A stretch of DNA of 64,000 bases from an uncultured Planctomycetota bacterium (GTDB taxonomy: Bacteria > Planctomycetota > Planctomycetia > Isosphaerales > Isosphaeraceae): assembly GCA_963823665.1 (NCBI GenBank), contig CAWGMQ010000004.1:2464001-2528000 (forward strand), given 5' to 3'. A model generated the notes under the pieces. That model did not search any database and was not told where the DNA came from. It was given only the letters and a program-made list of their open reading frames with translations. The number at the start of each line of letters is the position of its first letter. Positions within the stretch are counted from its first letter, which is position 1. Both the position numbers and the translations under genes were made by a program. Shown here one piece after another: positions 19,032 through 43,696 of the stretch.

Positions 19032-19295
19032 TGGAGGCGCCGGGAAAACAGAACCGCGCCCCTCGCAAGCGCAACTCTTTCCGATAAAAGGGCCTGCGGT
19101 ACGAGAAGTGGAGGCGGCGGGAATTGCACCCGCGTCTCGAAATACACAAGTCACTACGCCGCATAGTACTTGCGGCGATTCACCTCCCCCCTGTCTGCAT
19201 ACTGCCTGCACTGATTTCGGCCTACGCGAGCTTGTCGCGTGCTGGCACATGTTGGCGGCGGATGTCAGGCAGAAAATTGTGAGAATCGCACGCGT
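19032..19295. repeat. Cassette-boundary element A (tmRNA 3'-end-like core and conserved short peptide)
   Basis: Degenerate site at 19032, GTGGAGGCGGCGGGAATTGCACCCGCGTC at 19108-19136, then LRELVACWHMLAADVRQKIVRIAR. Confidence 0.8.
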
Positions 19296-19493
19296 CCAGC
19301 GGGCCATCTCCCGGGCTGGCGAGTATGACGATGGTGATGTTCGGTGTTCACGACGGGAAGTCGCCCCAGCCGGGACTCTTCGGGAGTCGTCGGGCTACGA
19401 GATCGCTCGGGTTGAGAAAGTCGATGAAAGCCAGGCTACGACCTGAGCTACTAAATTGAAAATACGTCTGACCCCCAGGAAGGTCGGGCTCTG

Positions 19494-22400
19494 TCACGTC
19501 GATAGAGTGGGCCGCCGACGAACCAGTTCAGCAAATCGACGGCGCTCTGGATGCAGCACGCCAATCCGCACCGCACTCCCAGCCGCTGACTTGGTCGATG
19601 AGCTCCTCGAGACAGATACCTGCGCCCGGGTCGACGTTTGTGCTCTCGCCATCGCCGGCCCCTGCCGGATGGCAGCAGCCGTGTCGGAGACCCGCGCGAG
19701 CGTTACCGGCGGCGGGCCGATCGGCAGTCCTGGCGAGAACGGATAGCGCTGGATCTCGAACGGCGGGTCCTTCATTGTGACCAGCACGTCTCCGAATTGA
19801 CCCAGACCGTAAACCGAGTAGCCCAGGTAGGCCCGCCCGGTGCCGTGTTTGCCTTGCTTGACGGTGCCGGTAAGAACCGTATGATGCCGCACCTCGCCGA
19901 CCAGCACCAGCCGCTGGCCCTGGCCTGACTCGGTGAGCAGGTCTTCAACGTAACCGCCATGCTCCACGCCGAAGCTGACCTTGTTTCCCCCGGCATCCTT
20001 GTAACTCAGATGTTTGCCCTGGGCGAAGAGCGCCCTGAAATTGGTGCCCGGGTGGCCCGCTCCCAGGCCGGCGAGCAGGTTGCCGCCGACGTCCGTGACT
20101 CCGCCCGCGGTGCCCTTGATCAGCAGGCTGTAAAACACATTCGACAACAGCGGCTGCATAGGAACCAGCGTCACTGTCCAGTTCACCGGATTATAAGCAG
20201 GCGCATAGAGAGCCTGTTGCGGACCCGTCGCGCTGAACGTTCCCTGGTGGCCCACGAGCGCCACTGCAAAGTTGGCCGGGTTGGTCGCGGTGGCCGCTGC
20301 AAGCGGCTCGCTGAAGCTCAGGATGAGGCTCGTGATCGTTTTCGCCGTGCCGGTCCATTGCACGGCCGTGACAGTGGGCGAGTTGGTGTTCGGGTTGAGG
20401 TCTTTGATCGTCAGGATCGCGCTGCTAAGTGCGCCCAGAAGCGCGCCATCCCCCGGACCGGCGAGCGCCAGGCCGACTGTCTCGTCGTGGCTGTCGTATG
20501 GATCGTCCAGCACCGGGACTGAAACGGTCTCCTGCGCGACGCCCGCCGGGAAGACGACCGTCTCCGCGGTCGGCGTGTAATCGAGGCCGGCAGTCGCAGT
20601 CATCGGCACCGTCGTGAAATTGACGGAGACCTGCCCAAGCTGGCCATCCGACCTGACGACCTCAATGTCGGCGAACCCCGCGTTGTCGTCAACCTCGTAG
20701 TTGGGCGCACTGAACTGCAAATCGCCCGGCCGGTCAGTGACGGTCGACGTCACTGTTGCAGTCGCCTGGCTCGGCGTTCCGTTAAATTCGTTGGCGGTGA
20801 CGCTCATCGTGGAAGTGAGCTCACCGATCGCTGCTTGCTGGGGCGTGACCACGATGGTGACGTTCACACTTGCCCCGACCGCCAGGCTGCCGATGTCGGC
20901 CCGCAGGTCTGGTCCCGATTGATTCACCGGCCCGCTGACACCCGATGAGCCCGGCTGCAAAACCCAGTTCCCCGACACAAAATCGACATCAGAGGCCAGT
21001 GGGAAAGCGAGAGTCACTCCGGTGGCCGGCGACGGACCGTTGTTGGTGATGACCGCTCTGTAGGTCAGCTCGTCAGCGAATTCGACGGGATCTGGCGACG
21101 CTGTGAATTGAGTAATCGCGAGGTCGGCCATGGGAAGGATCGGCGTCGAGACCATCGCGGTGTTGGAGCTTGCGTTGAACTCGTTGGTCGTGACGACCGC
21201 CATGTTGACGATTGGCGAGTCGGCCACTGCCGATTCAGTCGAAACGACGGTGATCGTCAGTATTGCTGAGGTATTGATGGTCAAGGTGCCGAATGTCGCG
21301 GTCACCTGTCCGTTTTGAATCGACGCGTTCAGCCCGGCCACCGACGTGGTGGCTATCACGTTCGAGGTTATGTCCGGCGGCAGCGTATCGGTCACGATGA
21401 CCCCGGTGGCAATTGAAGGGCCGCTGTTCTTTGCAGTGATCGTGTACGTCAGATTCTTGCCGACGTAATTCGGGCCGGGCGGGCCCGTCATTTGAAGCCC
21501 GACGCCGGTCACTGCCGTGACCGTGGTCTCCACCGAGGCCGAATTGTCAGGGTTGTCATTCGACGGAGAGCTGATGGATGCGCTATTGGTTATTGTGCCC
21601 GTGCCGCTCCCCGCGGCGGCCGCGGTCGGCGTCACGACGATGGTGATGGTGGCCGTGGCGCTCGCCGGCAGGTTGGCGAGCGGCATCGTGAGAATACCGC
21701 CCGATGGAGTCGCGCCGCCCGTGGCCGACACGAAGGACACGTTTGCCGGCAGCTCGTCGGTCACGACCGCGGCCGGGTCGGCCGACGGCCCGCTGTTGGT
21801 CGCCTTAATCGTGTAGGTCAGATTACTGCCCGCGCCGACCGAATCGGGGTTGCCCGACATCGTGATCGAAAGGTCGGTCACCGGGGCCACCGGCACCGAG
21901 TTCATCACGGTGTTCGGGTTCGGGTTGTACTCGTTGTCGGTCACGGTCACGCTGTCGACGAGCGGCGAGTCGGATACCGCGGCAAGCGTGGGCACGACCG
22001 TGATGGTCATGCTGACACTGTCGCTCTGGTCAAGCTCGCCGAAGCTTGCGTTGACCTGGCCGCCGGATACGCTCGCCGTCACCCCCGACACCGACGTGGT
22101 GGCGATCACGTCAGAGGTGATGTCTGCCGGCAGCGCATCGGTCAAGACCACGCCGGTCGCGTTCGACGGACCGTCGTTGGTGGCCGTGACGGTAAAGGTC
22201 AGGTTCTGCCCGACCTGGGCCAGGGTCGGAACCGCGCTTAACTGCAAGCCGATGGCGGTCACCTCGAAGACCATCGTGGTCGTCGAGGCCGAATTGTCCA
22301 GGTTGGCGTTGTACATCCCGGTGATGACCGCGCTGTTTGTGATCGTGCCGGTTCCGGAGCCGGCCGCCGCCGCGGTGGGCGACACGACGATGGTGACGGT

Positions 22401-25400
22401 CGTGGTGTCGTTGGCCGCCAGCGTGCCGAGGGGCAAGGTCAGCACGTCACCGGACGGAGTCACGCCGTTTGTGGCCGACACAAAGGTCACATTTGCAGGC
22501 AGCGTGTCGGTCACGACCGCGTCCGGGTCGGGCGACGGGCCGCTGTTGGTCGCCTGAATTGTGTACGTCAGCTCGCTGCCGGCGCCGACCGGGTCGGGCG
22601 TGCCCGACATCGTGATCGAGAGGTTGCTCACCGGCACGGGCTGAACCGTCGTCATCACCGGGGGCGGCGTGTTGTTGCTCGGGTCAGGATCGTACGTGCT
22701 GCTGGAAACCGTCGCGCTGTCGCTGATCTGGGGGATCGACGAGGTGTCGGTCTCGACCGTGATCGAAACGGTCGCGGTCGCGCCCGCGGCCAGCGTGCCC
22801 AGGTCGGCCGTGACCTGGCCGCCGGAAATGGTCGCCGTCACACCCGGCACCGACGTGGTTACCGTCACGTTCGACGTGATGTTCTGCGGTAGCGTGTCGG
22901 TCACGTCGACGTCGGCCGCGTCCGACGGGCCGGCGTTGGTCGCCGTTAACAAGTATGTGACAGTATTACCGGCGATCACGGCGTCCGGGCTTCCGCTCAA
23001 GGTCAGGCCAAGGTCGGCAGAGGGATCCACCAGGGTCGTCACTGAGTCGGTGCTGTTGCCCGGGTTCGGATCAAAGTCAGCACTCGTGACGCTCGCCATG
23101 TCAGTGATTTGTGGGATGGCGCTATCCGTCGGAACGACGGTGATGGTGAGCGTGGCGAAGGTGTTACCCCTCATCGTGCCGAAATCGGCGGTCACCACGT
23201 CGCCGTCGATGCTGGGCGTCACGTTTGGATCCGACGCGACTGCTGTCACGTTCGAGCTGATGCTCTGCGGCAGCGTGTCCGTCACGTTCACACCGGTGGC
23301 ACCTTCTGACCCGATATCCGTGACCGTCACGGTGTACGTCAAAGTGCCGCCGACATAGACTGAGGGAGTCGGCGAGGCGGTGACCTGTACGGCGACGTCG
23401 GCACTCGGCACCGCAACGATGTCCTGCGAAAACTCGGACGTATTGCCCAGGGGGTCGGTCGCGGTGGCCGAGATCACCCAGCCGGCCGGCGTGGGGGTGT
23501 TCAGCACGGTGTCGAAGCTCGCGTTGTAGTCGGCCCCGGTCGTAACGGTCGTGCTGCCGAGGTACTTCTGGCCCTGGCCGTATCCCGAAGGGTCGGCGGT
23601 GGCACTTGCAAAAAACTGCACGAGATAGGTCGTGCTGGCCGAGGCGTTCAAGGTGCCGATGACCTCGGTCGTCGTTGCCGTATACGCCGCCTGGGTCAGA
23701 ACCGGATAGTTCTGGAAATCGTTGTTTTGAGGGAGTGTGAATCCTTGTTCGTCGAGATGGTTCGGAGTTGGTCCGCCAGGCCCCGGTGGGGCACCTAACA
23801 GGGAGATCCCCAGGCTGCCGTTGTCGTAGATCGAGTTCGAGAGGAAGGAATTGTGATCGTTGTTGGAAACGACCACGATCCCTTGGTTCACGTTGTTGGT
23901 GATCACGTTGCCGGCCCCTTGGGCTGTGCCGCCGATCGTGATGTTGCTTGCCACGAGATCCACGCCGTTACTCTTATTGCCGAGGTCGTCGCCAGCCGAG
24001 TCGGTGCCGATATAGTTGCCCAGAACGACCAATCCATCGGCCTCGCCGGAGTACTCAGCGATTCCGTCTTGGTCGTTGGCCGAGATCACGTTCGCCGCGC
24101 TTGCGACCGTGCCGCCGACCGTGCTATCGCCCGGGACACTGATGCCGCTGCCCACGTTCGGCAGTGGATTCCTACCGGTGACGTCCACCCCAATCAGGTT
24201 GCCTTCCATCAGCTCGCCCACCGTCTTACCCGTTAGGCTATCGATCCCGGTTCCGTTGTTGCCCGAGATCACGTTTCCCGCGCCGCTGACGGTCCCCCCG
24301 ACAGTCGCATACGACGCACCGAAAAACTGAACGCCGGAATAGTTGCCAAGCGCGATCTTGCCGGTCACATCGGTGCCGCAGTAGTTGCCTTCGACGAGAT
24401 CGCCGATGCCGTTGCCCAGCGCGACGCCCGATTCAACATTGCCCGAGACGATATTTCGTGCCGCCGCCGCCGTGCCGCCGATCGTAATGTCGTCGGCACC
24501 ATCCAGCAAGACACCGTTAATGCCGTTGCCGAGGATGCTCGTAGCTCCCGTCGCAAGGCCGATGATGTTGCCCTCGATCAGCCCCCCCGTATCGTAGGTC
24601 GGGGCGGCAAACCGCCCCAGGTTGATGCCGTTCTGCAAATTGCCGGAGATCAGATTGGCCGAGCCTTTCACGGTCCCCCCGATCGTCATCCCGGTTGCAC
24701 CTAAGGCCTGGATTCCGTCCTGGACGTTCGGCACTGCCGCGGTGCCCGCCAGATTCGTGCCGATCGTGCTCGACTGAATGACTGTGTTGCTTGTCCCCGG
24801 GTCGAGCAGGACGCCGCAGATGGAGTTGCCAGAAATCAGGTCGCCGGTGATCGTCGTGCCCGTCACCCCGCCCAGATGGATTCCATTCAAGGTGTTGGGA
24901 ATCGCGACGGTCCCAGTGGAGTCGGTGCCGATCAGGTTATTCGCGATCAGATTGGTCGAAGAGGGCCCGTTGACCTGCTGAATCAGGATCCCTTCGCCGG
25001 TGTTGCCCGAGATCACGTTGCCGCTGATCGTGTTCTGCGATGCATCATCCAGCAGCAACCCGTCTTGCCCGTTGCCCAGCGCAGCGCTCCCGCTCGCTTT
25101 GATTCCGATGTAATTCCCTTCGACCAGATTGCTGTCGGTTGCCTGGGCATCGCCGATCGCGATTCCCTCATTCGTATTGCCCGAAATGACGTTCCGCGCA
25201 GCGGCGGTCGAGCCCCCGATCGTATTGCTGGCTGACCCAAAGATCTCGATGCCCACCCCGTTGGCCTTGGCGTTCGCACCGTCGGCTGTCCCGACGTAAC
25301 AGCCCTGGATCACGTCGTTTCCGCTGCCGGTCACCAGAATCCCCACGCCCGGACAGCCGGAGACGGCCAGGCCTTGAATCGTGCTCGATGCCGCCGCGTC

Positions 25401-25769
25401 CCAGAAGATCCAGCCCGACGCCGGCACGCTCGAGCCGTTGATCGATATCAGCGGCACTCCCGAGTAACCGCTCTGACTCGTGCCGTCAATGTTCACCGAG
25501 TCGGTGATCTGAGGTAACGATGAGCCCAGCGTGATCGTGTGAACCCCAGTTCCGGAGATCGCGAAATCGATGGTGTCAGGGGTCGAGTCGCCGTTGACCT
25601 GGTTGATCGCCCACCGTAGCGAGCCCATGTTCGAATCGTCGTTTGTATCCGTCACCGTGTAAGTCGAAAGCAGCTCGCGAGGCTCGAGCCACTCCACGCG
25701 GAACCGGTTCTTCCGCGCGGCAACGGCGCGCTTTCCGAGACGGCGAGTCACGTTAGATGCCTTGGTCAT
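19494..25769 (-). CDS. Giant secreted/surface protein: LEPR-XLL, beta-helix repeats, seven DUF11 Ig-like repeats, Calx-beta
   Basis: EWLEPRELLS; repeated NVISGN/GNYIG; (A/T)DL.I..S..P...G..LTYT...N.GPS units; GDLQFSAPNYEV. Confidence 0.9.
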   Translation of the reverse strand: MTKASNVTRRLGKRAVAARKNRFRVEWLEPRELLSTYTVTDTNDDSNMGSLRWAINQVNGDSTPDTIDFAISGTGVHTITLGSSLPQITDSVNIDGTSQSGYSGVPLISINGSSVPASGWIFWDAAASSTIQGLAVSGCPGVGILVTGSGNDVIQGCYVGTADGANAKANGVGIEIFGSASNTIGGSTAAARNVISGNTNEGIAIGDAQATDSNLVEGNYIGIKASGSAALGNGQDGLLLDDASQNTISGNVISGNTGEGILIQQVNGPSSTNLIANNLIGTDSTGTVAIPNTLNGIHLGGVTGTTITGDLISGNSICGVLLDPGTSNTVIQSSTIGTNLAGTAAVPNVQDGIQALGATGMTIGGTVKGSANLISGNLQNGINLGRFAAPTYDTGGLIEGNIIGLATGATSILGNGINGVLLDGADDITIGGTAAAARNIVSGNVESGVALGNGIGDLVEGNYCGTDVTGKIALGNYSGVQFFGASYATVGGTVSGAGNVISGNNGTGIDSLTGKTVGELMEGNLIGVDVTGRNPLPNVGSGISVPGDSTVGGTVASAANVISANDQDGIAEYSGEADGLVVLGNYIGTDSAGDDLGNKSNGVDLVASNITIGGTAQGAGNVITNNVNQGIVVVSNNDHNSFLSNSIYDNGSLGISLLGAPPGPGGPTPNHLDEQGFTLPQNNDFQNYPVLTQAAYTATTTEVIGTLNASASTTYLVQFFASATADPSGYGQGQKYLGSTTVTTGADYNASFDTVLNTPTPAGWVISATATDPLGNTSEFSQDIVAVPSADVAVQVTASPTPSVYVGGTLTYTVTVTDIGSEGATGVNVTDTLPQSISSNVTAVASDPNVTPSIDGDVVTADFGTMRGNTFATLTITVVPTDSAIPQITDMASVTSADFDPNPGNSTDSVTTLVDPSADLGLTLSGSPDAVIAGNTVTYLLTATNAGPSDAADVDVTDTLPQNITSNVTVTTSVPGVTATISGGQVTADLGTLAAGATATVSITVETDTSSIPQISDSATVSSSTYDPDPSNNTPPPVMTTVQPVPVSNLSITMSGTPDPVGAGSELTYTIQATNSGPSPDPDAVVTDTLPANVTFVSATNGVTPSGDVLTLPLGTLAANDTTTVTIVVSPTAAAAGSGTGTITNSAVITGMYNANLDNSASTTTMVFEVTAIGLQLSAVPTLAQVGQNLTFTVTATNDGPSNATGVVLTDALPADITSDVIATTSVSGVTASVSGGQVNASFGELDQSDSVSMTITVVPTLAAVSDSPLVDSVTVTDNEYNPNPNTVMNSVPVAPVTDLSITMSGNPDSVGAGSNLTYTIKATNSGPSADPAAVVTDELPANVSFVSATGGATPSGGILTMPLANLPASATATITIVVTPTAAAAGSGTGTITNSASISSPSNDNPDNSASVETTVTAVTGVGLQMTGPPGPNYVGKNLTYTITAKNSGPSIATGVIVTDTLPPDITSNVIATTSVAGLNASIQNGQVTATFGTLTINTSAILTITVVSTESAVADSPIVNMAVVTTNEFNASSNTAMVSTPILPMADLAITQFTASPDPVEFADELTYRAVITNNGPSPATGVTLAFPLASDVDFVSGNWVLQPGSSGVSGPVNQSGPDLRADIGSLAVGASVNVTIVVTPQQAAIGELTSTMSVTANEFNGTPSQATATVTSTVTDRPGDLQFSAPNYEVDDNAGFADIEVVRSDGQLGQVSVNFTTVPMTATAGLDYTPTAETVVFPAGVAQETVSVPVLDDPYDSHDETVGLALAGPGDGALLGALSSAILTIKDLNPNTNSPTVTAVQWTGTAKTITSLILSFSEPLAAATATNPANFAVALVGHQGTFSATGPQQALYAPAYNPVNWTVTLVPMQPLLSNVFYSLLIKGTAGGVTDVGGNLLAGLGAGHPGTNFRALFAQGKHLSYKDAGGNKVSFGVEHGGYVEDLLTESGQGQRLVLVGEVRHHTVLTGTVKQGKHGTGRAYLGYSVYGLGQFGDVLVTMKDPPFEIQRYPFSPGLPIGPPPVTLARVSDTAAAIRQGPAMARAQTSTRAQVSVSRSSSTKSAAGSAVRIGVLHPERRRFAELVRRRPTLST

Positions 25770-26057
25770 GGCATTTCCTCGTGTTGACAATCCACACGAT
25801 GCAATAATCAAGTCTCGCGCAACGAGAATCTGACACCTCGCTATGGTATAGGCGCCGCCATCACCGCATTCAGGGCGCTGCCGTTTGCGATTCTTTGCCA
25901 ATGAAGTCCGGATCGGCGAGATTCCCTCGCCTCCGACAAACGTCGAACGACCAGCGATCGATGCCCATTGAAATTATCGAAGGGACATGCCTGCGTGAAG
26001 TGATTGATGCCGGGCATAGGCAGCCGCGTTCGAGTCTGGGCCGATTCCCGCGTTTTG

Positions 26058-26669
26058 TCACACGAAGTCGAGGTACTCCAGCAGCGTCCACACGAGGCCG
26101 ATCAGGATCCAGCACGCGCCGACGATTCGGCCCGTGAAGTCGATCCAATCAACCGACCTCCGCCACCGGTCGCTGAAAATTTGAACACCCCAGACGGCTG
26201 CCACGGCCAGACCGACGTACATGAAGACCTCATTGGCAAGGTACTTCTGCGCCCAGAGATCCGCGGTCTTGGTCTGCATCGGCCGGGCAACTCTCGCAAG
26301 GTTCGTGGCCACCAAAAGCACCGGGATGGTCCAGCAGAACCCTAACAGCGCGGCCAGGCAGGCCGCCATCCCGGGCTGGCGCCAGATTCGCCGCCAACTT
26401 GGCCGCGGCGCCCGCATCCTCAGCACGACGAGCAACAGCGTCCAGGGCCCGACCACCGGCAACAGTATGGACGTGATGGCCGATACCGTGCCGATGACGT
26501 CCCTCGTGGACCAGGATTGTATGTCTGGAACTCCCAAATCAGTGATCCATATCCAGCCCATGAATAAATTGCGGTGAAACAGCTCGAATGATCCCAGCCC
26601 GATCGCCGCCGAGCCGACCAGCAGGATGGTGTCGAGCAAGGTCATGGGCTTCGGAGGGAAGGGCGGCAT
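26058..26669 (-). CDS. Hypothetical membrane protein
   Basis: Several TMs; RMRAPRPSWRRIWRQPG.AAC and DWIDFTGR motifs. Confidence 0.75.
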   Translation of the reverse strand: MPPFPPKPMTLLDTILLVGSAAIGLGSFELFHRNLFMGWIWITDLGVPDIQSWSTRDVIGTVSAITSILLPVVGPWTLLLVVLRMRAPRPSWRRIWRQPGMAACLAALLGFCWTIPVLLVATNLARVARPMQTKTADLWAQKYLANEVFMYVGLAVAAVWGVQIFSDRWRRSVDWIDFTGRIVGACWILIGLVWTLLEYLDFV

Positions 26670-26679
26670 GATCGTCTCC

Positions 26680-26964
26680 CTACTTCGAGTCAGCTTTAGC
26701 TCGCTCACCGTCCGCTCGCACCGGTCCGGGCGGCAGGTTCTCTGTCAGATATCGAGTCATCAGCTCGCGGAGGTGCGGCGTCGTATTGTGGCCTTCGTAA
26801 ATCCCGTGCGACCGATTGGGGTATGCCATCATCGTGAACGGTTAGTTGTACCGGATCAGCTTATTGATCAAGGCTTCGGTTCCCTGGTAATGGCAGTTGT
26901 CGTCTCCCGTTCCATGGATCAAGAGCAGGTTTCCTTTGAGCTGATTGGCAAAGTTGACCGGCGA
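26680..26964 (-). pseudogene. C-terminal fragment of S9 (dipeptidyl peptidase IV-like) peptidase with in-frame stop
   Basis: SPVNFANQLKGNLLLIHGTGDDNCHYQGTEALINKLIRYN*PFTMMAYPNRSHGIYEG. Confidence 0.8.
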
Positions 26965-27095
26965 TCTACCGGCCCGTCTACACGGGCAGCGGCACGATCA
27001 CCCTCGAGTCATCTCTGGGAGGCTTTCACGTCCTGGAGCTCGATCACGAGGCATGGATCCTCGAGCGCGGTGCCTACTGGGCGGCTATACCCTCG
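26965..27095 (+). pseudogene. Internal gene fragment, AIM24-family-like
   Basis: IYRPVYTGSGTITLESSLGGFHVLELDHEAWILERGAYWA; no start codon. Confidence 0.55.
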
Positions 27096-27133
27096 CTTTC
27101 CGAGTAGTTCGACCTTCGCCGAAAGCGCGTAAA

Positions 27134-34552: not shown

Positions 34553-34563
34553 CGATTGTCCCA

Positions 34564-35595
34564 CTACTTCTTTGATGGCTGTGGCCACTTGTACTGCGGC
34601 CTTTTTGGCTCGTCGACATGAACCAAGACATCCACGATGGCGCCAGGGATCGTGTCGATGCCCGAGGTCGGGGTGCCAACTGTGAGAGATCCTAGAGCAC
34701 GTCCCGGCTCGATATCCTGAACCTCGAAGCCGCCCTTGGGCCGTGAGGCGATGATCCGCACCTTGGCCTTTGCTCCGGAGGCTCGCTTCTTCGGCGGCGG
34801 CGGTGGAGGCGGGGGCGGAGGAAGGATGAGCCGCCCATAGCCACTTGTCGTCTTTCCGCCAATTCCCCACGCATCGAGAGCGTCGCACAGGAGCGAGAGA
34901 GCCAATTCCGACCAATTCTTGGCCTTGTTGCTCGTGGGCCCATGCCAGGACACGGCGACGCGAAACTCCCCCGTCACCGATAAGAACGGGATCGGGATCG
35001 GACTGTCGAAATCGGTCGGTGCGACGGAACCGTCCAGCCATTTCGGGTGGTGAGGCGTCATCACGTCCAATCTCAATGGCTCCGGTGACTTGGGCGTCAG
35101 CCACGCGTCGTGGAAGGTAATGCAGCCACTGTCGTCGGTCATGCCGAAGAGCAGTCGGTGATACATTCCTCCTTTCTTGAACTTTTCCTCCGTTGGCCCC
35201 CAGACCTGATCGCAATAGTGGGTCGCCAGGCCCTTGAGCGCCGAACCGGGTATGATCGGCATCCCGTAGGTGTGATGGAGACGGATGCCGGTTTCGATAA
35301 TGTTTTCCGAACCGAGGCCGACGATGAGGCGGCCCTGAGTTGTGAGGTCAATCGGCGCGGGATCCTTCGGAAGAAACGCCGACCAGCGGGTGAACGCGGC
35401 CTCGTAGAGGCCAATGAGATCACCGTCGCTCGCGGACTTGATCGCGGCATCGAGTATCTGTCGCTTGTGTTCGGGCTTTCCCTGATCGCCCGCGGCCGAT
35501 TCGTGCAGATATCGCTGGAGTAACAGTCCCGGATGCGAATCGTATTTGCCACGGTTTGGCATCAACGGGAGGAGCTGGTCGCGGATGGCGTTCAA
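34564..35595 (-). CDS. cmr6: Type III-B RAMP Cmr6 with poly-Pro linker and extra C-terminal domain
   Basis: RLIVGLG, HHTYGMPIIPGSALKG, LDVMTPHH, GIGGKTTSGYG. Confidence 0.92.
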   Translation of the reverse strand: MNAIRDQLLPLMPNRGKYDSHPGLLLQRYLHESAAGDQGKPEHKRQILDAAIKSASDGDLIGLYEAAFTRWSAFLPKDPAPIDLTTQGRLIVGLGSENIIETGIRLHHTYGMPIIPGSALKGLATHYCDQVWGPTEEKFKKGGMYHRLLFGMTDDSGCITFHDAWLTPKSPEPLRLDVMTPHHPKWLDGSVAPTDFDSPIPIPFLSVTGEFRVAVSWHGPTSNKAKNWSELALSLLCDALDAWGIGGKTTSGYGRLILPPPPPPPPPPKKRASGAKAKVRIIASRPKGGFEVQDIEPGRALGSLTVGTPTSGIDTIPGAIVDVLVHVDEPKRPQYKWPQPSKK

Positions 35596-35981
35596 GATTC
35601 GCCCTCCGTCGTATCGTCCGGCGTCGCGGCCTCTACGTATCTCTTCAGCCAGCTCGCGGCGTTGATGGCATCTCGGCTGAGGCGAAGGTAGCCTGTCAAC
35701 TGTTGTGTCCGCGCGTGCTGGTCGAGCGAGTCTTGTCCGGTCATCTCGGAATGATCGGCTGCCCTCAGAACCTCTGTCAAATCGGCGATATAGTTCGCCT
35801 GCTTTTTGGCCCGCGCAAACGCCACCGCCTGGGCCAGGCCGCAAGTGTGGATCAGAGCCGGAAACTTCTTGGCGAAACTGACATACTCCTTATCTGGATT
35901 CTTCCGCCCGCTGTTGGTGTGCAAGGCGATTCTCGCATAGGCGGCTTGCGCGAGCTTCTGACTTCGAGTGTGAACGCTCAT
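35592..35981 (-). CDS. cmr5: Type III-B small subunit Cmr5
   Basis: KFPALIHTCGLAQAVAF, WLKRYVEA. Confidence 0.92.
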   Translation of the reverse strand: MSVHTRSQKLAQAAYARIALHTNSGRKNPDKEYVSFAKKFPALIHTCGLAQAVAFARAKKQANYIADLTEVLRAADHSEMTGQDSLDQHARTQQLTGYLRLSRDAINAASWLKRYVEAATPDDTTEGES

Positions 35982-36874
35982 GCCTGCGCCTCCGTGAAGA
36001 CGCAGCGGACTTGCCCGCGGCCGACGGTCGCTTTGCCGCCGATCTGGAGCGTGAGCGGGTCTTTGGCGAACCGATCGAGCAGCCCTGTCGGAGTGATGTC
36101 TTCGCCGTCACGCCCGAAAACCCGATCGCATTGGACGACGCCGGATAGGATTGTCTCGGCCGGTATCGATTCCTCGGTCCACAATGCCCCTTTCGCCACG
36201 ACTTTCAACTCGTCGTCGATCCTCACGCGCGTATGCACCTCGGTCCCGGTCTCGCAGAGGAAGTCGAAAGCGCTGTCAGGCAGCACGACGAACCGCCTCT
36301 TGAATTGCTCTTGCCAGGCGCTGTCGTCGGGGAATACCCAGGCGGCGATTTTCGCGGCCCACGCCGTCGCGATCGGACATGGTCTTGCATCGAAATCCAG
36401 GTCTTCAAGATAGACACGCTTCTCTTCCGTGAGCGCTGTCTTCGTGTTGCCCTCGTCGAAATGGTGGGCGTTCGTGTCTGCCAGACTCGAAGGGGCCTCG
36501 GGGAGATCAGGCACGCCGGCCAGGTCGAGCGTCCGCCTCAGCGTGTGCAAGCACAGCGCTGACGTGGTCCAGGCGAAGGTGCCGCGGAAGCTCCGAACCG
36601 GCAGACAGACAAGATGCGCATCCGTTGGGATCAGCGCACCGGAGTTCGCTGATTCGCCTTCCTGATCGGCGCGGCCGAAAGCCTGCTGGACGTTCGCCAG
36701 TTTCTGTTGAACAGCCCAATCGCGCCAGACCCCCTTGAACGACGATCCCCGGATGATCGGCCAGCCTGTCACGCCGTCGCGGTCGATCGGAAGGTCGATG
36801 TACCCAACGCCCCGGCCGATCCCGGCATGGGTGGGACTGAGGGCATGAAGCCAGTAAATCCGCGTACCCATCAT
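35978..36874 (-). CDS. cmr4: Type III-B RAMP Cmr4 (target RNase)
   Basis: SPTHAGIG...IDLPIDRD (catalytic Asp position), GSSFKG, GALWTEE, QIGGKATVGRG. Confidence 0.95.
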   Translation of the reverse strand: MMGTRIYWLHALSPTHAGIGRGVGYIDLPIDRDGVTGWPIIRGSSFKGVWRDWAVQQKLANVQQAFGRADQEGESANSGALIPTDAHLVCLPVRSFRGTFAWTTSALCLHTLRRTLDLAGVPDLPEAPSSLADTNAHHFDEGNTKTALTEEKRVYLEDLDFDARPCPIATAWAAKIAAWVFPDDSAWQEQFKRRFVVLPDSAFDFLCETGTEVHTRVRIDDELKVVAKGALWTEESIPAETILSGVVQCDRVFGRDGEDITPTGLLDRFAKDPLTLQIGGKATVGRGQVRCVFTEAQA

Positions 36875-36900
36875 GATAAGTTCCCGTGATGTACTCGTGC

Positions 36901-38133
36901 CTACCAGGTTCCCCAAAGGGATAGTCCGAAGCCGTCGCGGCAGTCGTGAGGTGCGTCGCTAACAGGCTTTAGCCAGCCGTTAGTGGCCAGGATGCGCGAA
37001 TCACCATCGACTTTCTCGAAGAAGTAAACGCCGCCGGCCGGCACCATTCCGCGAATCGCTTTTGGGCCAGGTCGATCCTGAGGAACGACGCGGCGGCGGC
37101 CGTCTTCCTCGGCGTGCGGTGCATAAGCCCAGCCGGAAACCGCACGCCAGCGCGCAATGCAGACACCCACCAGCTTAAGCGTCGGCCCATCGCCCAGCGG
37201 CTTGCCGATCAGCGTGGTTCCGTCCAACCAGCCTGGCCGCCAGCCGTGCTCGAAGATGGCCGGCGTGGCAAGCACCATGCGAATTCTGCTCGCGTTTTGA
37301 AGCGCCGATTTAACGGTTTCTGAGCACTTCCAGACGGCCACTGAATCGTCGCGTTGCCAGTGAACAAGGCGTCGCTCGCCGCCCAGCGGGTGCCAGGTGC
37401 TGAGTTTGTCCACGTGCTGGAACGCTCGCTCCGCGATCGTTACCCGAGCCGAAAGCGTAATCTCGGCGAACCGGTCGCCCAATGGGAGTTTCTGGTCATC
37501 CGACTTCACGCCATGCCGAGGCAACTGTGCCACGTTCAATCCTGCCGTGGAGAAGATTTGGCCTTCCGCGGCCGCTCCCCTGTCAGCGTCGAGACAGACG
37601 TGATCGCGGATTTCTTGGAGCCCGGCATTGAGGAATTCCCGATCGAATGCCACCGGCTCGCCAACAAGCCATTTGGCAATCTCTCGGGCCGGCCACCACG
37701 CTGGAATTGGCTTCGGCTTGAAATCTTCCTCGGCTTGATCTTCAGTGAGCATTACGGGGTGTAGGCGCAAACCGTCGGGGAAGTCGCACCCGGTGAAACT
37801 CGGTTGCGGGGTCAGACGATGTACTGCCTTGACCGCCCTGCCGTCCTCGGTCGGCTCGGCGACGGCGTCGCTCGGCGCGGGCAGATACAACTCCTGGCCG
37901 ACCCTCGGAAACAGGCCGGCCACCTCAACGCGAAGCACGTCGAGCGGCGTGTTTCTCGTGAAATCGAGCGCCGCATTCGCCTTCACGAGCGCCGTGCGGA
38001 AGGACCCGGCTACTACAGACGGCAATGGCCAGCTAAGGCCGCGCATGCGGTTGCCCTGGCCGATTCCAAAAGGACGCCCATCGCGCGCGATGATCGGGTC
38101 GTGGGCCGTCAGTTGCAATGTGGTGACGCTCAT
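36901..38133 (-). CDS. cmr3: Type III-B Cmr3
   Basis: DPIIARDGRPF, PLPSVVAG, LGGERR, TPAIF..GWRP, VPAGGVYF, GFG. Confidence 0.93.
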   Translation of the reverse strand: MSVTTLQLTAHDPIIARDGRPFGIGQGNRMRGLSWPLPSVVAGSFRTALVKANAALDFTRNTPLDVLRVEVAGLFPRVGQELYLPAPSDAVAEPTEDGRAVKAVHRLTPQPSFTGCDFPDGLRLHPVMLTEDQAEEDFKPKPIPAWWPAREIAKWLVGEPVAFDREFLNAGLQEIRDHVCLDADRGAAAEGQIFSTAGLNVAQLPRHGVKSDDQKLPLGDRFAEITLSARVTIAERAFQHVDKLSTWHPLGGERRLVHWQRDDSVAVWKCSETVKSALQNASRIRMVLATPAIFEHGWRPGWLDGTTLIGKPLGDGPTLKLVGVCIARWRAVSGWAYAPHAEEDGRRRVVPQDRPGPKAIRGMVPAGGVYFFEKVDGDSRILATNGWLKPVSDAPHDCRDGFGLSLWGTW

Positions 38134-39851
38134 GTCGCCGCCTCCAAAACGGGAGGCGGAAGCTCTCCCGCTTGCCGCAAGGCCGCGTCAATCTGACGGG
38201 CAACGAGCAGTTCCTCCGCCAAACCCAACAGCTTCGCCGAATTCATCTCATTGAGATAGCCGTCAAGTGCCTGCCGCACCGTATCGACCCCGCGCGACTG
38301 CTTTTTGGCGATCAACCGAATCAAGTCCATCCTGATCGCACTATCCGCGTGCTGTTGCCACGGTTCGTACAGTCTGGCCATGGTGCGCAATTCGTAAGGC
38401 AGCTTCGTGGGAATGATGCCCTTGTTCATCAACTCGGCGAACTTGGCCAATCGCACATCAGGATTGTCGCTCCACCGGCCCCGCATGCGAATCGGCGCGC
38501 CGCCGCGCTTATGTAAGTGCACGGCCAATCCATCGCGATCGGGCTCCTTGGCCGCTTTTTCAGCCGCTCGCCCGTAGCCGAGAAGGTCTTCCAGGTTCTC
38601 CATGAAGTGGCCGATCGCGATGCCAACGGAGAGAGTTGGAGGCGTCCCTTCCTCGTTCTTGTAATGGTTCAACGATTCGCCGAATTTATCGTATAGTTCT
38701 CTCGCGCATTGCAGGCACTTGTCCACGGGCAGGAACGCCAGCACGTCGTCGCCGCCGGCGTAGACGAGCACACCATTGTGGTCGTTGACGATTTTCTTCG
38801 CTTCGTCCGCGAACCCGGCCAGGGCCATGGAGAACTCGCGATGCTTTTCTGGTGAGCTCAAAGCGGAAATGGCGGCTCCCATCTTGTCGCCATCGGCCAC
38901 GAGGATGGCGAGATAGGGATTGGGGTCGCCACCAGCGTCCATCAGAGCCTCGGCGATTTCATTGAGATCTGTGTCGCGCAGCCCGAGTTCTTTTTTCAAA
39001 TCGGCGTGCCGATCCTTGTAGATGATCGAGCCTTCATATGGGAAATACTGATACTTTTCTTCCTGGACAGTGTTCAGTCCTTTGGACACGAGCTTTTGAC
39101 ACGCATTCTTCAATCGCGCGAGTTTGTCGCGATCCCGGGTTTGAACGCCTTGCAGCCATGTCTCGGCCGCGACTCGGGCGACCGAGGAATATCGTGGATT
39201 GCTTTGCCCTTGTTCTTTGCCGAGCCGCTTCGTAACCCCAACGACGTCAAGTTGTTCGCCGGGTGAGAGTCGAAGCTTCCTGGGCCAGTGGTCACGGTAG
39301 GTCTCTCGCGATTCTCCTGGCTTCGGTCCGACGAGCACAGTTGGGCGTTGCCCATCGAGCGACGACTTGGGGAGCCCAGCGTCATTGAAGCCAGGCTGCT
39401 TGAAATCGCGGCAGTTCTTCCGGCCAGCCAGCAAACGCATCAGTGTTTTGCGATCCTTGGAGTAGCTGCCCGACCCTTTGACCCACGCCGCATAGAACTC
39501 GATAACGTCATCTACCTGATCGCTCCAGATCTCGGGACGAATCACACCAGGCGTCTCTTGCCGGGCCTCCTCGGCGAACATGCGCCAGCATTGCTGGGCT
39601 GATTGCTTGGCCGCCGCGGCCACGTCCTTGGGTTCACCGGTGGGCAACTCGCCCACGACGACGTTGGCAATGCTCCCGGCATGCGACGACGCGGGAAAGA
39701 TCAATCGGCCGTCCCCCTGCTCGACCCTTTTCGCCACGGCCCGGCTAATCTCCGAGAGCAGATACGAGCCGAACCACAGATCGCGCGTCCGCCGCGCCGC
39801 CGCGATAAATTCCTGCACCGGGCCGACGGAGATCGCAATAAGGTGGCTCAT
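38130..39851 (-). CDS. cas10: Cas10/Cmr2, HD-less, with intact palm motifs
   Basis: GPVQEFIAAARRTRDLWFGSYLLS; ADGDKMG; YAGGDD. Confidence 0.95.
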   Translation of the reverse strand: MSHLIAISVGPVQEFIAAARRTRDLWFGSYLLSEISRAVAKRVEQGDGRLIFPASSHAGSIANVVVGELPTGEPKDVAAAAKQSAQQCWRMFAEEARQETPGVIRPEIWSDQVDDVIEFYAAWVKGSGSYSKDRKTLMRLLAGRKNCRDFKQPGFNDAGLPKSSLDGQRPTVLVGPKPGESRETYRDHWPRKLRLSPGEQLDVVGVTKRLGKEQGQSNPRYSSVARVAAETWLQGVQTRDRDKLARLKNACQKLVSKGLNTVQEEKYQYFPYEGSIIYKDRHADLKKELGLRDTDLNEIAEALMDAGGDPNPYLAILVADGDKMGAAISALSSPEKHREFSMALAGFADEAKKIVNDHNGVLVYAGGDDVLAFLPVDKCLQCARELYDKFGESLNHYKNEEGTPPTLSVGIAIGHFMENLEDLLGYGRAAEKAAKEPDRDGLAVHLHKRGGAPIRMRGRWSDNPDVRLAKFAELMNKGIIPTKLPYELRTMARLYEPWQQHADSAIRMDLIRLIAKKQSRGVDTVRQALDGYLNEMNSAKLLGLAEELLVARQIDAALRQAGELPPPVLEAAT

Positions 39852-41167
39852 CGGGGAACCTCAGAGAAACCTTCGTTTCGGGCAAACGCGAGAAACGCTT
39901 CGAGTGCTGAGCCATTGGGCGATCCGGCGAGTGGTGAATTTGGATAACTCGCCAACGTCGGGGCACTGATCGTTGCTGATGGCGGGACGGGAAGCGATTT
40001 GTCCCCGCGTCGTAGATCGACTCCACTTAACAATTCTGTCTTCAAACGCAAAATGAGCGGGATTGCGTTGCCGTCCTGCAAGACCAACGGCTTAAGAATC
40101 AGTGGACTCGCCATCCGTTCGCGTTTCTCGTCGTCGGGGCCCGCGGAGGGGTAGAGAACTGTGTCTTGCGGTTCTCCCTGTCCTTGGAAGTGAAATACGA
40201 TCGGCAAACCGAGCTCCGCGCGGGGGAACGCGTCATCGGGAATCTGCGAAACTCGAGCGTGTTGAGCCGAACGCTGGCCCGTGATCCGACGAATCGTCTC
40301 AGGCTCGGGATACCGTGATCGCCCCGGTCGGTTTGGCTGTTGTCCAGGATTGCGAGCGAACCCACCCCCTTGCCGGAAGTGCTTGAATCGTCCCATCAGC
40401 GAATCCCAAACCTGGATCGGATCACCGGCTGGTTCCGTTCTTCGGACTAGCGTCCACTCGCCAATTGTCGGCCATTCGCGGCCTTCTATCCGATGAGATG
40501 TGAATTGATTCAACTGTTCCGCGAAGTGGCCGTGATCGCGTGGAGCAAGTTCCTTGCAAAGAATCGCCCCGCAACCGCGGCGAGTCCGGGCGCCCAGGCC
40601 GCCGAAGTTGAGCCATGCCCAGAGCGCCGGCTCGACTTGCGGCCAAAGATCGTTTGGGCAGTGCAGGCTCAGGCGGAAGCTCGCCTTGCGTATGCAGGCG
40701 GCGGGCACGACCTCGATCTGTTCCCGTCCCTTTGCCAGTTGCCCCTGAAATGGGAACAAAGCGTAGGAAAGAGACGGCCGGTTGAACGGCTCGATCCAGG
40801 TTGGCGTTGATTTATATTTATGCGTTGTGCTGTCAACCTCGAACCTGGCACACGGCTCCGGTTTGCCAACCTGCAGATTCTCCACGAGCACCCGCACCCG
40901 GCTCGCTCGCTCGGTAGAGCCCCAGATTTTCGATTGGTTGGCCCGCAGTTCCTGCCGCGTCGCATACCGCGCCCCGACGGTCGCTCGCCACCAGAACTGC
41001 AATTGACCCCGAATCGCCGTGGGCCGAAGGGGAAAGCTCTGGTCAGTGACGCGCGTCTCGACGCCGCCCCCGAACATCGGCGTTATCAATTTGATGTCAA
41101 AGCTGCGCCCGCCGTCGACCGTGGGCTTCTTCCAGTCAATCGGAACGTCTGGTATCTCTCGCGGCAC
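39848..41167 (-). CDS. cmr1: Type III-B RAMP Cmr1
   Basis: LITPMFGGG, IRGQLQFWWRA, FGGLGARTRRGCG, LGLPIVFHF, RMASPL; GTG start after GGAGG. Confidence 0.93.
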   Translation of the reverse strand: MPREIPDVPIDWKKPTVDGGRSFDIKLITPMFGGGVETRVTDQSFPLRPTAIRGQLQFWWRATVGARYATRQELRANQSKIWGSTERASRVRVLVENLQVGKPEPCARFEVDSTTHKYKSTPTWIEPFNRPSLSYALFPFQGQLAKGREQIEVVPAACIRKASFRLSLHCPNDLWPQVEPALWAWLNFGGLGARTRRGCGAILCKELAPRDHGHFAEQLNQFTSHRIEGREWPTIGEWTLVRRTEPAGDPIQVWDSLMGRFKHFRQGGGFARNPGQQPNRPGRSRYPEPETIRRITGQRSAQHARVSQIPDDAFPRAELGLPIVFHFQGQGEPQDTVLYPSAGPDDEKRERMASPLILKPLVLQDGNAIPLILRLKTELLSGVDLRRGDKSLPVPPSATISAPTLASYPNSPLAGSPNGSALEAFLAFARNEGFSEVPR

Positions 41168-41718
41168 GCGTAGTCCCTCCGCTGCAACCTCGTCGTGGGC
41201 GGTGAACAAGGGCTCCGGTCAAATGCGGGACGGAGGCATTGAGCTAGGTGACGGCGCGGCCGCAGCGCTACGCGCGGACCACACTGCGAACCTGTCCGTC
41301 TTCTCCGGAACCGGAATAGATCAGAAACATTGTAGCCATGCAGGGTTCGAGCGAATATCCAGTGGATTGAATTTGAACCGGGCAACTTCGGCCGCGAAGG
41401 GGAGTTGCGACCAGCACCGCAAAGAACCCTGTCCGGCGTTCCCGGCATTCGAACCATGAACGTGAACAGAAGGAACTTGATTTCGAGCAGAAAAGCTCAC
41501 AGCCATTTCCGGCGATGGGCCTTCATCGAAATCTAGTCGGGGCGAGAGAACGGCTATCGAACTTCTTATCGCCGGAGTCCTGGGCAGGGAAGCCGGGCCG
41601 CGGCGTGTTCTTATCCGAGAATCAGATGACGATCGAGCGTGACGATTAATCCCAGACTCCGCAGGCTCGGTGGGCTTTGGGCCCGGAAGAGTCTGCATGC
41701 TCCCCGGCAGGGTGAGCC

Positions 41719-42201
41719 TCATCGCTCGGACCGCTTGACCTTGCGAGTCGCTGCCGCCTTGCGACCAGCGGCTTGCCGCTTCTTGGTTTGGACGGCCTTC
41801 GCCGCGGCTGCCCGCCGCTCGCGAGTGGCCGCCGCCTTGACTGCCGCCTCGCTTCGGCGGCCGCCGAGTTTGATGAGGGTGAACGGCTCTTCGCCCATGC
41901 CCTCCTCCGCACCCTTAATCCACAACTGGACCTTGGACCGTTCTTTCCAGTCCTGGGCTTCGATCACCTCGATGAAGCCGTCGATGTCGAAGTTCTTGAA
42001 ACCGCCCCCGTAAAGGTTGGCGTCCATCCCGTATCCCGCGCCTTCCTCGTAGGTCGGGCCGATCAGGCTGACCAACCGGCAGGGCGACAGCCAAGTGTTG
42101 ATCCGCTCCATCGGCTCGCACGTGTCCCGGGCCTCATCCTCGCCGTCCTCCCACAGCTCCTCATTGTCAAAGGAGATCATGACGTTCCACACGAAGCCCA
42201 T
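41719..42201 (-). CDS. Hypothetical acidic protein with Lys/Ala/Arg-rich basic tail
   Basis: 160 aa; tail AAVKAAATRERRAAAAKAVQTKKRQAAGRKAAATRK. Confidence 0.75.
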   Translation of the reverse strand: MGFVWNVMISFDNEELWEDGEDEARDTCEPMERINTWLSPCRLVSLIGPTYEEGAGYGMDANLYGGGFKNFDIDGFIEVIEAQDWKERSKVQLWIKGAEEGMGEEPFTLIKLGGRRSEAAVKAAATRERRAAAAKAVQTKKRQAAGRKAAATRKVKRSER

Positions 42202-42220
42202 CGGTCACACTCCTTCATAT

Positions 42221-42597
42221 CAAGCGGTTCCACTTGCATCGTCGGGATCGTGCTCGCGGATGCGGCCCACTCCAACGATCCACAATTTTCCCTTCACCGA
42301 GCCCGTTTTCAGGTGTGCGATCACGCTCTACAATCTCGCCCGAATCGGCGAGTGCACCGCTTTCGGAGGACGCACAACGACAATACCTTCGGAATCTTCA
42401 GGTGGAAAGCCGAGCGAGTTCGAAAGATCCAGATCGACCGTCACCACGGTTCGACCGACCGCTTTGCAGGTGTCTTAGATCGCTTCGTCCGTGCTTCCCG
42501 CCAGACCTTCGGCGATTACCGTAGCCTCGTCGAAGCCCTCCTTGAGCAGTTCCGGCACGAGCCGCACATCGAAGTTTTCATCGAGTTTCAGCTTCAG
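42221..42597 (-). pseudogene. DUF5615 PIN-like toxin pseudogene with two in-frame stops
   Basis: KLKLDENF...GLAGSTDEAI*DTCKAVGRTVVTVDLD...GIVVVR...RL*SV. Confidence 0.85.
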
Positions 42598-42847
42598 GCT
42601 GACACCGGTTCCGTAAGGATCGGAAAGATTCGTTCGCGTGACATCTCCGCGGCAAAAGCTAATGCCGCTCGAATGTCCTCGGGCCTGAGTTGTGGATAGC
42701 AGCAAGCAATTCAGCCTACGGGATGCCTTCCGCGAGATTGTCGACAACCAGTGACACCCATATTCGCGTGCCCCGGATCACGGGCCGGCCAAAGCAGACA
42801 CCCGGATCAATCGAAATTCGCGTGAGAAGTTCGTTGCGGTCGTTCAT
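42594..42847 (-). pseudogene. DUF433 antitoxin pseudogene (stop and frameshift)
   Basis: RISIDPGVCFGRPVIRGTRIWV...EGIP*AELL / YPQLRPEDIRAALAFAAE. Confidence 0.85.
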
Positions 42848-43162
42848 GGTCGATAGGCCCGAGCTGATAATCGCCGTCCAATTCGGGAAATGGACTTCTT
42901 GGTTCAGCGTCGATCCGAGCATCTTATCCCATGATACTATGCCCATGAAAGTTCACCGCCGTGGGAACTCGGAATAGTCGAAACGGGCGGCGGGATTTGA
43001 ACAGCGCAAATGCACCGCCCGCCGTCAGGTTGCGTCGAACTTGGCGTGCTGCAATAAGGCCGACCAGGATGAGCTGAACTGAATTGAACCAGATCGAGTT
43101 GCTGGATTATCCAAGGAATAGGCCCACCGCCATTCCCAGCGAAGGGCTTTCGCGATAATCAA

Positions 43163-43205
43163 GTCTGGGGCGGCGGGATTCAACCCACGACCTCACGCAC
43201 CAGAC
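43163..43205 (-). other. Degenerate tRNA(Pro)-like 3' half (att-site remnant)
   Basis: Minus strand reads AGGTC-GTGGG-TTGAAT-CCCGC-CGCCCCAG: variable loop, T-arm and acceptor 3' strand; no 5' half. Confidence 0.5.
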
Positions 43206-43272
43206 CCGAGCGGATCGTTCCAGAGTTGCGGCACGCTCGCTGACGATCGCAAGGTTGCTGGTCTCTGCGACG

Positions 43273-43381
43273 CCCAGACGACGGGAAGTGGGCGCTTATC
43301 GGGCGCGATCACCTCCTCCTTTCCGGCTCCGACCGCAGGCACGATCCCAGACGACGGGAAGTGGCGCTTATCGGGCGCGAT
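43273..43381. repeat. Two 36-37 bp direct repeats separated by a 36-bp spacer
   Basis: CCCAGACGACGGGAAGTGG(G)CGCTTATCGGGCGCGAT at 43273-43309 and 43346-43381. Confidence 0.9.
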
Positions 43382-43571
43382 AGCCAAAGCTCAGCGCTCG
43401 TCCGCCGCATCAGCTTCGAAGAGCGGTGACGGGCCGGGTATAGGCCGGGACTCCAGACGCGAGGCGGGTCCATCACAACATGCCTTGGCTCAGAGTTGTT
43501 CCGTTAGCAATCCCTTTAACTTGTTTTTGGCGAAATATTTACGGCAAATGTCCGCAGATTGATACACTCAA

Positions 43572-43696
43572 GGGCGGCGGGTAAATAACCCGCGTCCCTC
43601 GGCGAGAATGAAATGACGCAAACTCAATGACGAAAATCACTTGCGAACTATCGCAAGTGCCTTCAAGTGGAGGCGGCGGGAATTGCACCCGCATCC
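43572..43696. repeat. Cassette-boundary element D (no downstream peptide)
   Basis: GCGGG-TAAATAA-CCCGC at 43577 and GTGGAGGCGGCGGGAATTGCACCCGC at 43667. Confidence 0.85.
43633..43659 (-). terminator. Probable intrinsic terminator hairpin downstream of nikR
   Basis: Perfect 9-bp stem CACTTGCGA-acta-TCGCAAGTG followed by ATTTT on the minus strand. Confidence 0.5.

Follow-up and report, generated by a model that had tools for sequence, protein, structure and literature searches.

Background

In Dehalococcoides, genomic islands stand in tandem, bounded by repeats of the 3' end of ssrA, the gene for transfer-messenger RNA (tmRNA), and 15 of the islands described there lack an integration module (PMC3146451). 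The recombinase gene of these islands lies antisense at the left attachment site (attL), which it overlaps, and finds its stop codon only in the neighbouring island or in the circle; the Dehalococcoides recombinase DsiB is a serine recombinase, and all repeats reported lie within 100 kilobases (kb) of ssrA (PMC3146451). Here I describe an array of tmRNA-bounded units in 64,000 nucleotides of an uncultured planctomycete of the Isosphaeraceae (assembly GCA_963823665.1, contig CAWGMQ010000004.1, positions 2,464,001 to 2,528,000; this whole stretch is called the window, and coordinates refer to it unless a contig is named). Between positions 19,032 and 43,696 it holds three cargo units without an integrase, separated and bounded by four copies of a tmRNA-derived attachment core (core 1, junctions A to D). 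At the left end of each unit a second core (core 2) stands at a precise spacing from the first, and at the right end an orphan C-terminal tail of an integrase is found.

The likeness to the Dehalococcoides islands as published consists in tandem units with ssrA 3' ends as borders and in a recombinase gene that runs antisense across the attachment site. Unlike there, the recombinase is here a tyrosine integrase, many stacks lie away from a full ssrA, and the integrase-less units have a conserved left end of their own with the second core. Cis-mobilizable elements (CIMEs), which have neither integration nor transfer genes, retain attL and attR and accumulate at a single site, are described as decayed integrative and conjugative or integrative and mobilizable elements that are mobilized in cis (PMC5704250). 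By analogy, the present array would work like a stack of CIMEs: both attachment ends are kept in all three window units and in 20 of the 22 intervals that begin with a core-2 arm, and no recombinase was hit in the open reading frames scanned. However, set against the CIMEs of that account, the left arm of the window units is family-wide, recurs across genera and holds no integrase remnant. The right end is derived from an island. My verdict is a variant of CIME-like tandem ssrA islands that also carry a phased second site.

Islands of the Islander type at tRNA and tmRNA genes show a displaced 3' fragment, a core centred on the T-loop, a tyrosine integrase and tandem arrays, and Islander accepts a member only if it has an integrase and the full gene lies on the same replicon (PMC4383910). 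The signature described there is present at the unit ends, which carry a tmRNA 3' fragment centred on the T-loop; the units nevertheless fail the Islander test, because they have no integrase (only the orphan tail) and no linked full tmRNA gene. Suicidal integrases of the Sulfolobus spindle-shaped virus (SSV) type have the attachment site inside the gene, so that integration splits the reading frame, and their catalytic part lies in the C-terminal piece (PMC7253208; PMC8371274); the Mx8 integrase is named among the cases with the site in the gene (PMC4383910). In the family proposed below as helper, unlike the SSV types so described, the catalytic domain stays with the N-terminal body and a helical tail of about 35 amino acids (aa) is parted from it. 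The Mx8 integrase is a closer parallel to such a split than the SSV types. Tycheposons are small cargo elements stacked, with remnants, at tRNA and tmRNA ends, and encode their own integrase and often replication genes (10.1101/2020.12.28.424599). The window units differ from tycheposons of that description in having no integrase of their own in the open reading frames (ORFs) scanned.

Repeated sites also delimit swappable cargo, without a recombinase in each unit, in integron cassette arrays and pdif modules; a pdif site has 28 base pairs (bp), with XerC and XerD arms and a 6-bp centre, and integron cassettes, mostly of one gene each, carry attC sites that fold on a single strand into one hairpin whose boxes pair. 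The window core differs from pdif in its 7-bp centre, which lies inside a tmRNA T-arm, and in its near-symmetric half-sites. It differs from integron arrays in that there is no attC fold, no integron integrase beside the array, and in that the units are multigenic, 2-13 kb long, with island-derived ends.

Results

Core 1 occurs at 19117-19133 (A), 27210-27226 (B), 32289-32305 (C) and 43676-43692 (D), four tmRNA T-arm cores in one shared orientation. All four have the loop AATTGCA on the plus strand, which is the overlap TGCAATT in tmRNA sense, and on the minus strand they read as T-arm plus acceptor end of a tmRNA. Core 2 starts at 27135, 32213 and 43577, which gives spacings to core 1 of 75, 76 and 99 bp, and a degenerate copy lies at about 19040 beside A. 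An earlier note, made from the letters of the window alone, had described four elements of the same orientation with paired palindromes, that of A degenerate, and its coordinates and spacings are confirmed. The window contains 9 palindromes, 3 site pairs and 4 cores, whereas 150 dinucleotide shuffles yielded 0.41 palindromes on average and neither pairs nor cores, and the site pairs are thus far beyond chance.

No tmRNA gene was found within the 64-kb window. Recombinase families were not detected by Pfam in 73 of the 236 listed window ORFs, PF00589 had no match in or near the window, and a six-frame profile search found no member of the cognate integrase family (see below) in the window. The absence of an integrase and of a full tmRNA had been noticed before; what had been overlooked is the integrase tail at A, B and C.

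In tmRNA sense the left end of a unit consists of core 1, 18 bp, a 29-bp inverted repeat, 12 bp, core 2 and a non-coding arm, and the right end follows the cargo with the integrase tail, an inverted repeat, 11 bp and again core 1. In species genomes, a scan with a broad two-core pattern showed the spacings to peak at 75-77 bp (45 of 140 matches), with planctomycetes among the rows of this family; the broad pattern also picked up unrelated tmRNA-adjacent repeats of other phyla, and only the 75-77 bp peak was followed. The exact pattern is present in 7 of 401 genomes of the class, namely in this one, in 5 of the 98 others of its family and in 1 of 302 outside the family, as well as in 22 metagenome contigs. 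Altogether 75 distinct left arms were gathered, 69 with the cores 74-77 bp and 6 with the cores 98-100 bp apart. In a less biased search for core 2 alone, 35 matches were obtained and 30 examined, and core 1 was found beside 29 of them, at 74-76 bp (23) or 98-100 bp (6); core 2 showed no sign of a role as a free-standing crossover site. When regions were anchored on core 1 and the repeat only, core 2 was present within 3 mismatches in 16 of 22 arms, some of these regions having originally been located through the two-core pattern, as against 5 of 20000 background draws.

The two cores are separated by the imperfect 29-bp inverted repeat, and spacer, repeat and spacer measure 18/29/12 in 58 of the 58 arms of 76 bp. 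Five of the six long arms are split 29-31/29/23, so that in the long type either spacer is longer by about one helical turn. The extra length of D had been ascribed to its 22-bp hairpin; the hairpin is indeed present, but both spacers are 11-12 bp longer. Likewise, the claim that the core-2 site has a different AT-rich 7-mer each time does not hold across the family, as the 7-mer is not free: over 60 arms it is mostly YAAGTWW (TAAGTAA in 18). The half-sites of core 2 are better conserved than its 7-mer, which tracks two arm subfamilies of 29 and 19 members, found across genera and conserved for about 300 and 250 bp past core 2; C and D of the window belong to the larger. As a gene, the left arm was rejected for its lack of codon periodicity and for deletions that are multiples of three in only 4 of 35 and 2 of 50 cases; as a structured RNA, it has almost no consensus fold; a 98-aa ORF across the arm of C obtained low Atlas scores only. 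The arm is non-coding and does not derive from an integrase gene. Left ends of this bipartite kind form a conserved family that extends over several related genera of soil planctomycetes.

The cores stand as direct repeats, and folding gives separate hairpins rather than one attC-like stem. The suggestion of an integron- or dif-module-like array is therefore abandoned, the units being multigenic and 5-11 kb long and their ends coming from ordinary tmRNA-targeting islands. What stands of that early description is the non-autonomous unit bounded by tmRNA-derived sites for a tyrosine integrase, with a 7-bp overlap in the T-loop.

A 14-bp motif is shared by 25 of 70 arms, mostly 225-340 bp past core 2 and at times repeated (e.g. 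L228, L207, L310); it may mark the cargo boundary, and I take it to be similar to repetitive extragenic palindromic sequences. The same core 1 also occurs with other ends, namely a right arm without tail (L143, L200, L299, L312, L322, L329) and at least two other left arms common to several genomes (L052, L301, L275, L302).

On the far side of core 1 at A, B and C there is a short ORF with a conserved end motif, the tail. Of 43 tails, 39 are 108-109 bp away from the core, and for 38 the frame is open from the core to the tail. As a query the 44-aa tail alone found no long proteins; a later profile search succeeded, with 711 protein clusters matched. The best 150 of these are all 233 aa or shorter, and in two of the 150 an integrase box II is fused in frame to the tail, via the antisense core. 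One box II fusion retrieved 52 longer proteins, all with PF00589 and many of about 476 aa. A script pattern found the core-encoded motif in 33 of these 52 homologues, of which 2 run on into the tail and 20 into tmRNA antisense, and in six homologues the tail stands straight behind the catalytic domain, without an attachment-site insert (profile match 93.9%, E 1.5e-7). In this family of PF00589 integrases of about 476 aa, the tail forms the C-terminal piece, with two helices. One member (P0151) is predicted by its structure model to begin with a small N-terminal domain of three strands, followed by a helical and a catalytic domain, a disordered linker and the two-helix tail, and in that model the stretch encoded by the attachment site would fall in the disordered linker (373-464), ahead of the folded tail. 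The tail modelled by itself likewise has two helices. A fold search with the tail returned generic two-helix matches only (best Z 5.8).

Autonomous islands carry the integrase gene at their left end, antisense and reading through the attachment core; therefore, on integration the tail is cut off from the catalytic body. The 108-bp and 109-bp tail classes correspond to two frame classes of the integrase, and in mixed arrays left arms of the integrase type and of the core-2 type occur together, with the right end in common. The tail points to the family that spans the attachment site as the likely helper. Mobilization in trans, as envisaged in the earlier note, has thereby gained a candidate enzyme, with intact genes overlapping ssrA in two relatives, G238 and G160, though in the present genome only a broken remnant is found (contig C11, residues 289-446), besides two distant paralogues of 35-36% identity.

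Another helper was considered and rejected: the 565-aa ORF behind the first tmRNA gene of contig C10 has no PF00589 match, apparently misses the first catalytic arginine (of the four rows compared, one stood in the wrong frame) and, used as a query, was not found in 8 element-rich relatives. It stays a minor candidate because its islands share the hairpin arm of D. A tyrosine-recombinase-like ORF of 565-579 aa with a C-terminal helix-turn-helix, apparently lacking the first catalytic arginine and preceded by three direct repeats, was observed at L024:975-2714, and its homologues stand directly behind tmRNA genes in G394 (twice), G022 and G386; this is likely a second, Pfam-negative family of ssrA integrases.

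The genome contains three full tmRNA genes (L013-L015), two on contig C10 (360462-360829 and 422392-422760) and one on C8 (2039527-2039897). The C8 gene adjoins the only smpB and has the loop AGCAATT. Both C10 genes have the loop TGCAATT and 3' ends identical to the window core, in agreement with the expectation that the constant-loop site would match ssrA, so that the window core is one loop base apart from the smpB-linked gene. This difference might shield the smpB-linked gene from integration. The three genes are alike upstream, yet there is only one smpB; bin contamination (3.5%) may play a part here. Behind one of the two C10 genes the same second core stands at a distance of 76 bp, and the left end of the element also follows full tmRNA genes in G021 and G366. 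Rfam matches on contig C5 were read as tRNA T-arms and set aside.

The array itself is not at a tmRNA gene, because the window belongs to contig C4 and the tmRNA genes lie on C8 and C10. Among 121 classified core sites, some of them from outside the family, the core is preceded by a tail in 51, a full tmRNA gene in 23, a decayed partial tmRNA in 16, a right-arm-like sequence in 5 and other sequence, under which D was counted, in 26. Full tmRNA genes number three here, two in G394 and one in 27 of 28 other genomes, with none in the remaining one. Dispersed and decaying tmRNA copies would therefore be a plausible seed for stacks like that of the window. In other phyla an inverted, T-arm-like palindrome stands 80-95 bp behind the tmRNA gene (L071, L078, L084, L110 and others), separate from this family.

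At the orthologous locus, a congener (G001) has 5.2 kb of unrelated genes, including two for glycosyltransferases, and no core, and synteny with it picks up again at 18573, to the left of A; in G230 the locus holds about 0.5 kb, and opcA adjoins nikR. The cmr block of the window is present on another contig of G001 with 97.6% identity over 5342 bp, the flanking genes having 82-86%, and this copy adjoins a tail-plus-core junction that is followed by a different arm. The kinase-ECF (extracytoplasmic function) block occurs in a G230 unit with 79.7% identity, inverted relative to the ends, and on a metagenome contig with 93.8%. Cargo order is therefore not fixed, nor is cargo bound to one orientation. 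Cargo shuffling had been proposed as a check, and cargo does differ between relatives (G001, G230).

The regions fetched contain 33 core-to-core intervals (3 from the window), 22 of which begin with a core-2 arm; 20 of these 22 end with the tail, 2.0-13.3 kb further on. In the units of relatives no recombinase was found in 63 of the 139 listed ORFs that were scanned, nor by the family profile in six frames. Their cargo ranges over kinases, ECF sigma factors, WD40 and surface proteins, defence genes and insertion sequences.

Sequencing runs match the window with small shares only (at most 0.20), and no RNA run was listed among them. The contigs of 4 of 24 runs gave no core-to-core joint among the matches listed; one joint falls inside the homologous tails and is hence ambiguous. 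One run covers the cmr genes at about 99%, with no cover in the bin that has the arm of D.

Discussion

The observations are best accommodated, with a probability of roughly 0.7, by units that move as circles from core 1 to core 1, are served in trans by an integrase that spans the attachment site and accrete at existing junctions, core 2 being a phased binding site that takes no part in crossover. Three integrase-less units would then have been inserted one after another at the TGCAATT core, with the 476-aa tyrosine integrase family as the probable helper. This enzyme would cut at the T-loop overlap of core 1, and therefore each junction would be a new target for the next arrival. The inverted repeat may be the binding site of a protein, bending or accessory, by which the two cores are brought into phase, and core 2 could adjust synapsis or directionality or act as a competitor for scarce integrase, with a different 7-mer that presumably keeps it out of strand exchange. 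The stack may have been seeded by a displaced tmRNA fragment that has since eroded to the core, as in many relatives.

Several observations speak against this reading. Many cargo genes are broken, and the array lies away from any full tmRNA gene. In this genome, at 91.9% completeness, no intact cognate integrase was found. As most arms were fetched by two-core patterns, their conservation looks inflated. Autonomous left arms have no core 2, and helper islands therefore give its proposed role no support. The match to G001 is a mosaic, with 97.6% identity in the cmr block and 86% in the right end, and breaks off inside cas10, so homologous exchange or another kind of transfer fits as well as movement of a whole unit; a clean, exact empty site could not be rebuilt.

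A bolder version, which I consider conceivable though rather doubtful, sees the units not as decayed islands but as an independent family of integrase-less cassettes in soil Isosphaeraceae, resembling miniature inverted-repeat transposable elements and with a left end evolved for themselves. Core 2, in helical phase, would then be an active integrase site, either outcompeting helper islands for the enzyme or serving as a second channel for swaps of arms and cargo, and the right ends would return the C-terminal domain to helpers that insert alongside, so that the array regulated its own mobility.

Alternatively, core 2 may be a second crossover site with an overlap of its own, by which new arms and cargo are joined, the 76-bp element being a gene-capture adaptor; this is closer to the original idea of the earlier note, and I hold it to be unlikely. 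The repeat and core 2 are indeed arranged like the right end, with repeat, 11-12 bp and core in succession, the 7-mer goes with the arm subfamily past core 2, the 76-bp and 98-bp types are both joined to the same arm, and unrelated DNA directly follows the core 2 of B. Repeat segments also appear intermixed, with identities of 0.67 and 0.63 within subfamilies and 0.60 between them, but the 52-bp segments carry little phylogenetic signal. However, no right end with a core-2-type overlap was found among the loci examined, core 2 had core 1 beside it at 29 of 30 sites, and cargo starts only 250-400 bp past core 2, frequently at a motif set apart from it (25 of 70 arms).

Slightly less probable again is that the array is a fossil of independent islands that decayed in place, in which core 2 is the leftover duplicate of a right end from a collapsed mini-island and nothing is functional or mobile. 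The broken cargo genes, the degenerate core 2 at A and the failure to find an intact helper would suit such a history, decayed tmRNA copies head 16 of the 121 core sites, and the integrase remnant on C11 shows that decay happens. Decay in place does not account for a non-coding left arm, without integrase remnant, that is common to 29 and 19 arms across genera, nor for spacers that are exact in 58 of 58 arms and shift by one helical turn, for half-sites conserved more than the 7-mer, or for near-identical cargo at different loci. Finally, a site like attC or the attP of phage CTX, recombined as a folded single strand by a host enzyme of the Xer or integron type, is highly improbable, for although pairing on one strand is conceivable for palindromic cores that differ in their 7-mers and flank an inverted repeat, the non-palindromic flanks are direct and not inverted, the cores never paired with each other in 6 of 6 strands folded (5 elements), and the right end derives from an island integrase that acts on double strands.

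In searches of the open-access literature aimed at it, I found no description of a left end that lacks an integrase, is shared by a whole family of units and has a second, phased core. Such units are missed by island finders because these require an integrase. If the units move as proposed, very large planctomycete genomes would have in them a concrete way of acquiring and reshuffling kinases, ECF sigma factors, surface proteins and defence systems, the latter including a type III-B CRISPR block. The array also names a candidate pair of enzyme and site, a natural full-length integrase and an attachment site of exact, helically phased geometry. Were core 2 to function, an island integrase would have in it an accessory or second site of an unusual kind.

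Units and cargo of the window

The units measure 5.1, 8.1 and 11.4 kb, and all cores and left arms lie on the minus strand, the tails on the plus strand. Core 1 of junction D, about 70 bp from the stop codon of nikR, is the start of the stack, and neither integrase tail nor tmRNA body was found upstream of it. The left arm of D (43346-43659) is of the long type and consists of the conserved arm, core 2 (43577-43593, TTATTTA) and the inverted repeat (43617-43645), with the hairpin at 43638-43659. At its far end stand two 3' fragments resembling tRNA-Pro (42985-43240, minus strand); a similar fragment is located 410-506 bp from core 1 in 7 of 63 arms, and it has the right half-site in common with the tmRNA core. 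Junction C has a conserved non-coding left arm of about 300 bp from the TAAGTAA subfamily (31910-32270, with core 2 at 32213-32229 and the repeat at 32242-32270) and a right arm (32317-32473) with repeat and tail (32393-32473, 108-bp class). At B, core 2 (27135-27151, TATATTT) and repeat (27163-27191) span 27135-27191, and the arm past core 2 matches none of the other arms; the right arm (27238-27406) has the repeat at about 27238-27266 and a tail of the 108-bp class at 27314-27406. Core 1 of junction A is the right end of unit B-A, whose tail (19222-19293) is in frame with the antisense core and of the 109-bp class. Beyond it an orphan left arm remains (19040-19098), with the degenerate core 2 at 19040-19056 and the 29-bp repeat at 19070-19098; no right end was found beyond this arm, and no core in the 20 kb left of the window.

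The cargo labels given earlier (DUF11; ECF-kinase-PEP-CTERM; Cmr) were upheld by a Pfam scan. Unit B-A (19330-27130) carries a DUF11/Calx-beta surface protein of 2135 aa, a 216-aa ORF without Pfam match and a gene fragment whose peptidase-like label was read off the sequence, and unit C-B (27407-31900) a broken Ser/Thr kinase gene, an ECF sigma factor and a PEP-CTERM protein. The cargo of unit D-C (32474-43160) comprises an antitoxin-like ORF, a truncated PIN toxin gene, csx3, a Card1-CARF nuclease, Cmr-type RAMP genes, cmr5, cmr3, cas10/cmr2 and small ORFs. Its type III-B operon with the Card1-CARF nuclease and csx3 spans 33089-41209; a simple repeat scan revealed no CRISPR array in this unit, and cas1, cas2 and cas6 had no Pfam match. 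Related Card1/csx3 blocks occur in G230 and G021. The antitoxin-like ORF and PIN toxin gene stand beside the right end (32500-33052), with copies of 88% identity in G012, L100 and G001; the pair is intact in G001 and truncated in the window. Outside the array, a bacterial ubiquitin-like cluster is located at 4094-11136, with ThiF/E1, a JAB protease, FHA, RING and zinc-ribbon proteins, a trypsin-like protease and an E2-like protein.

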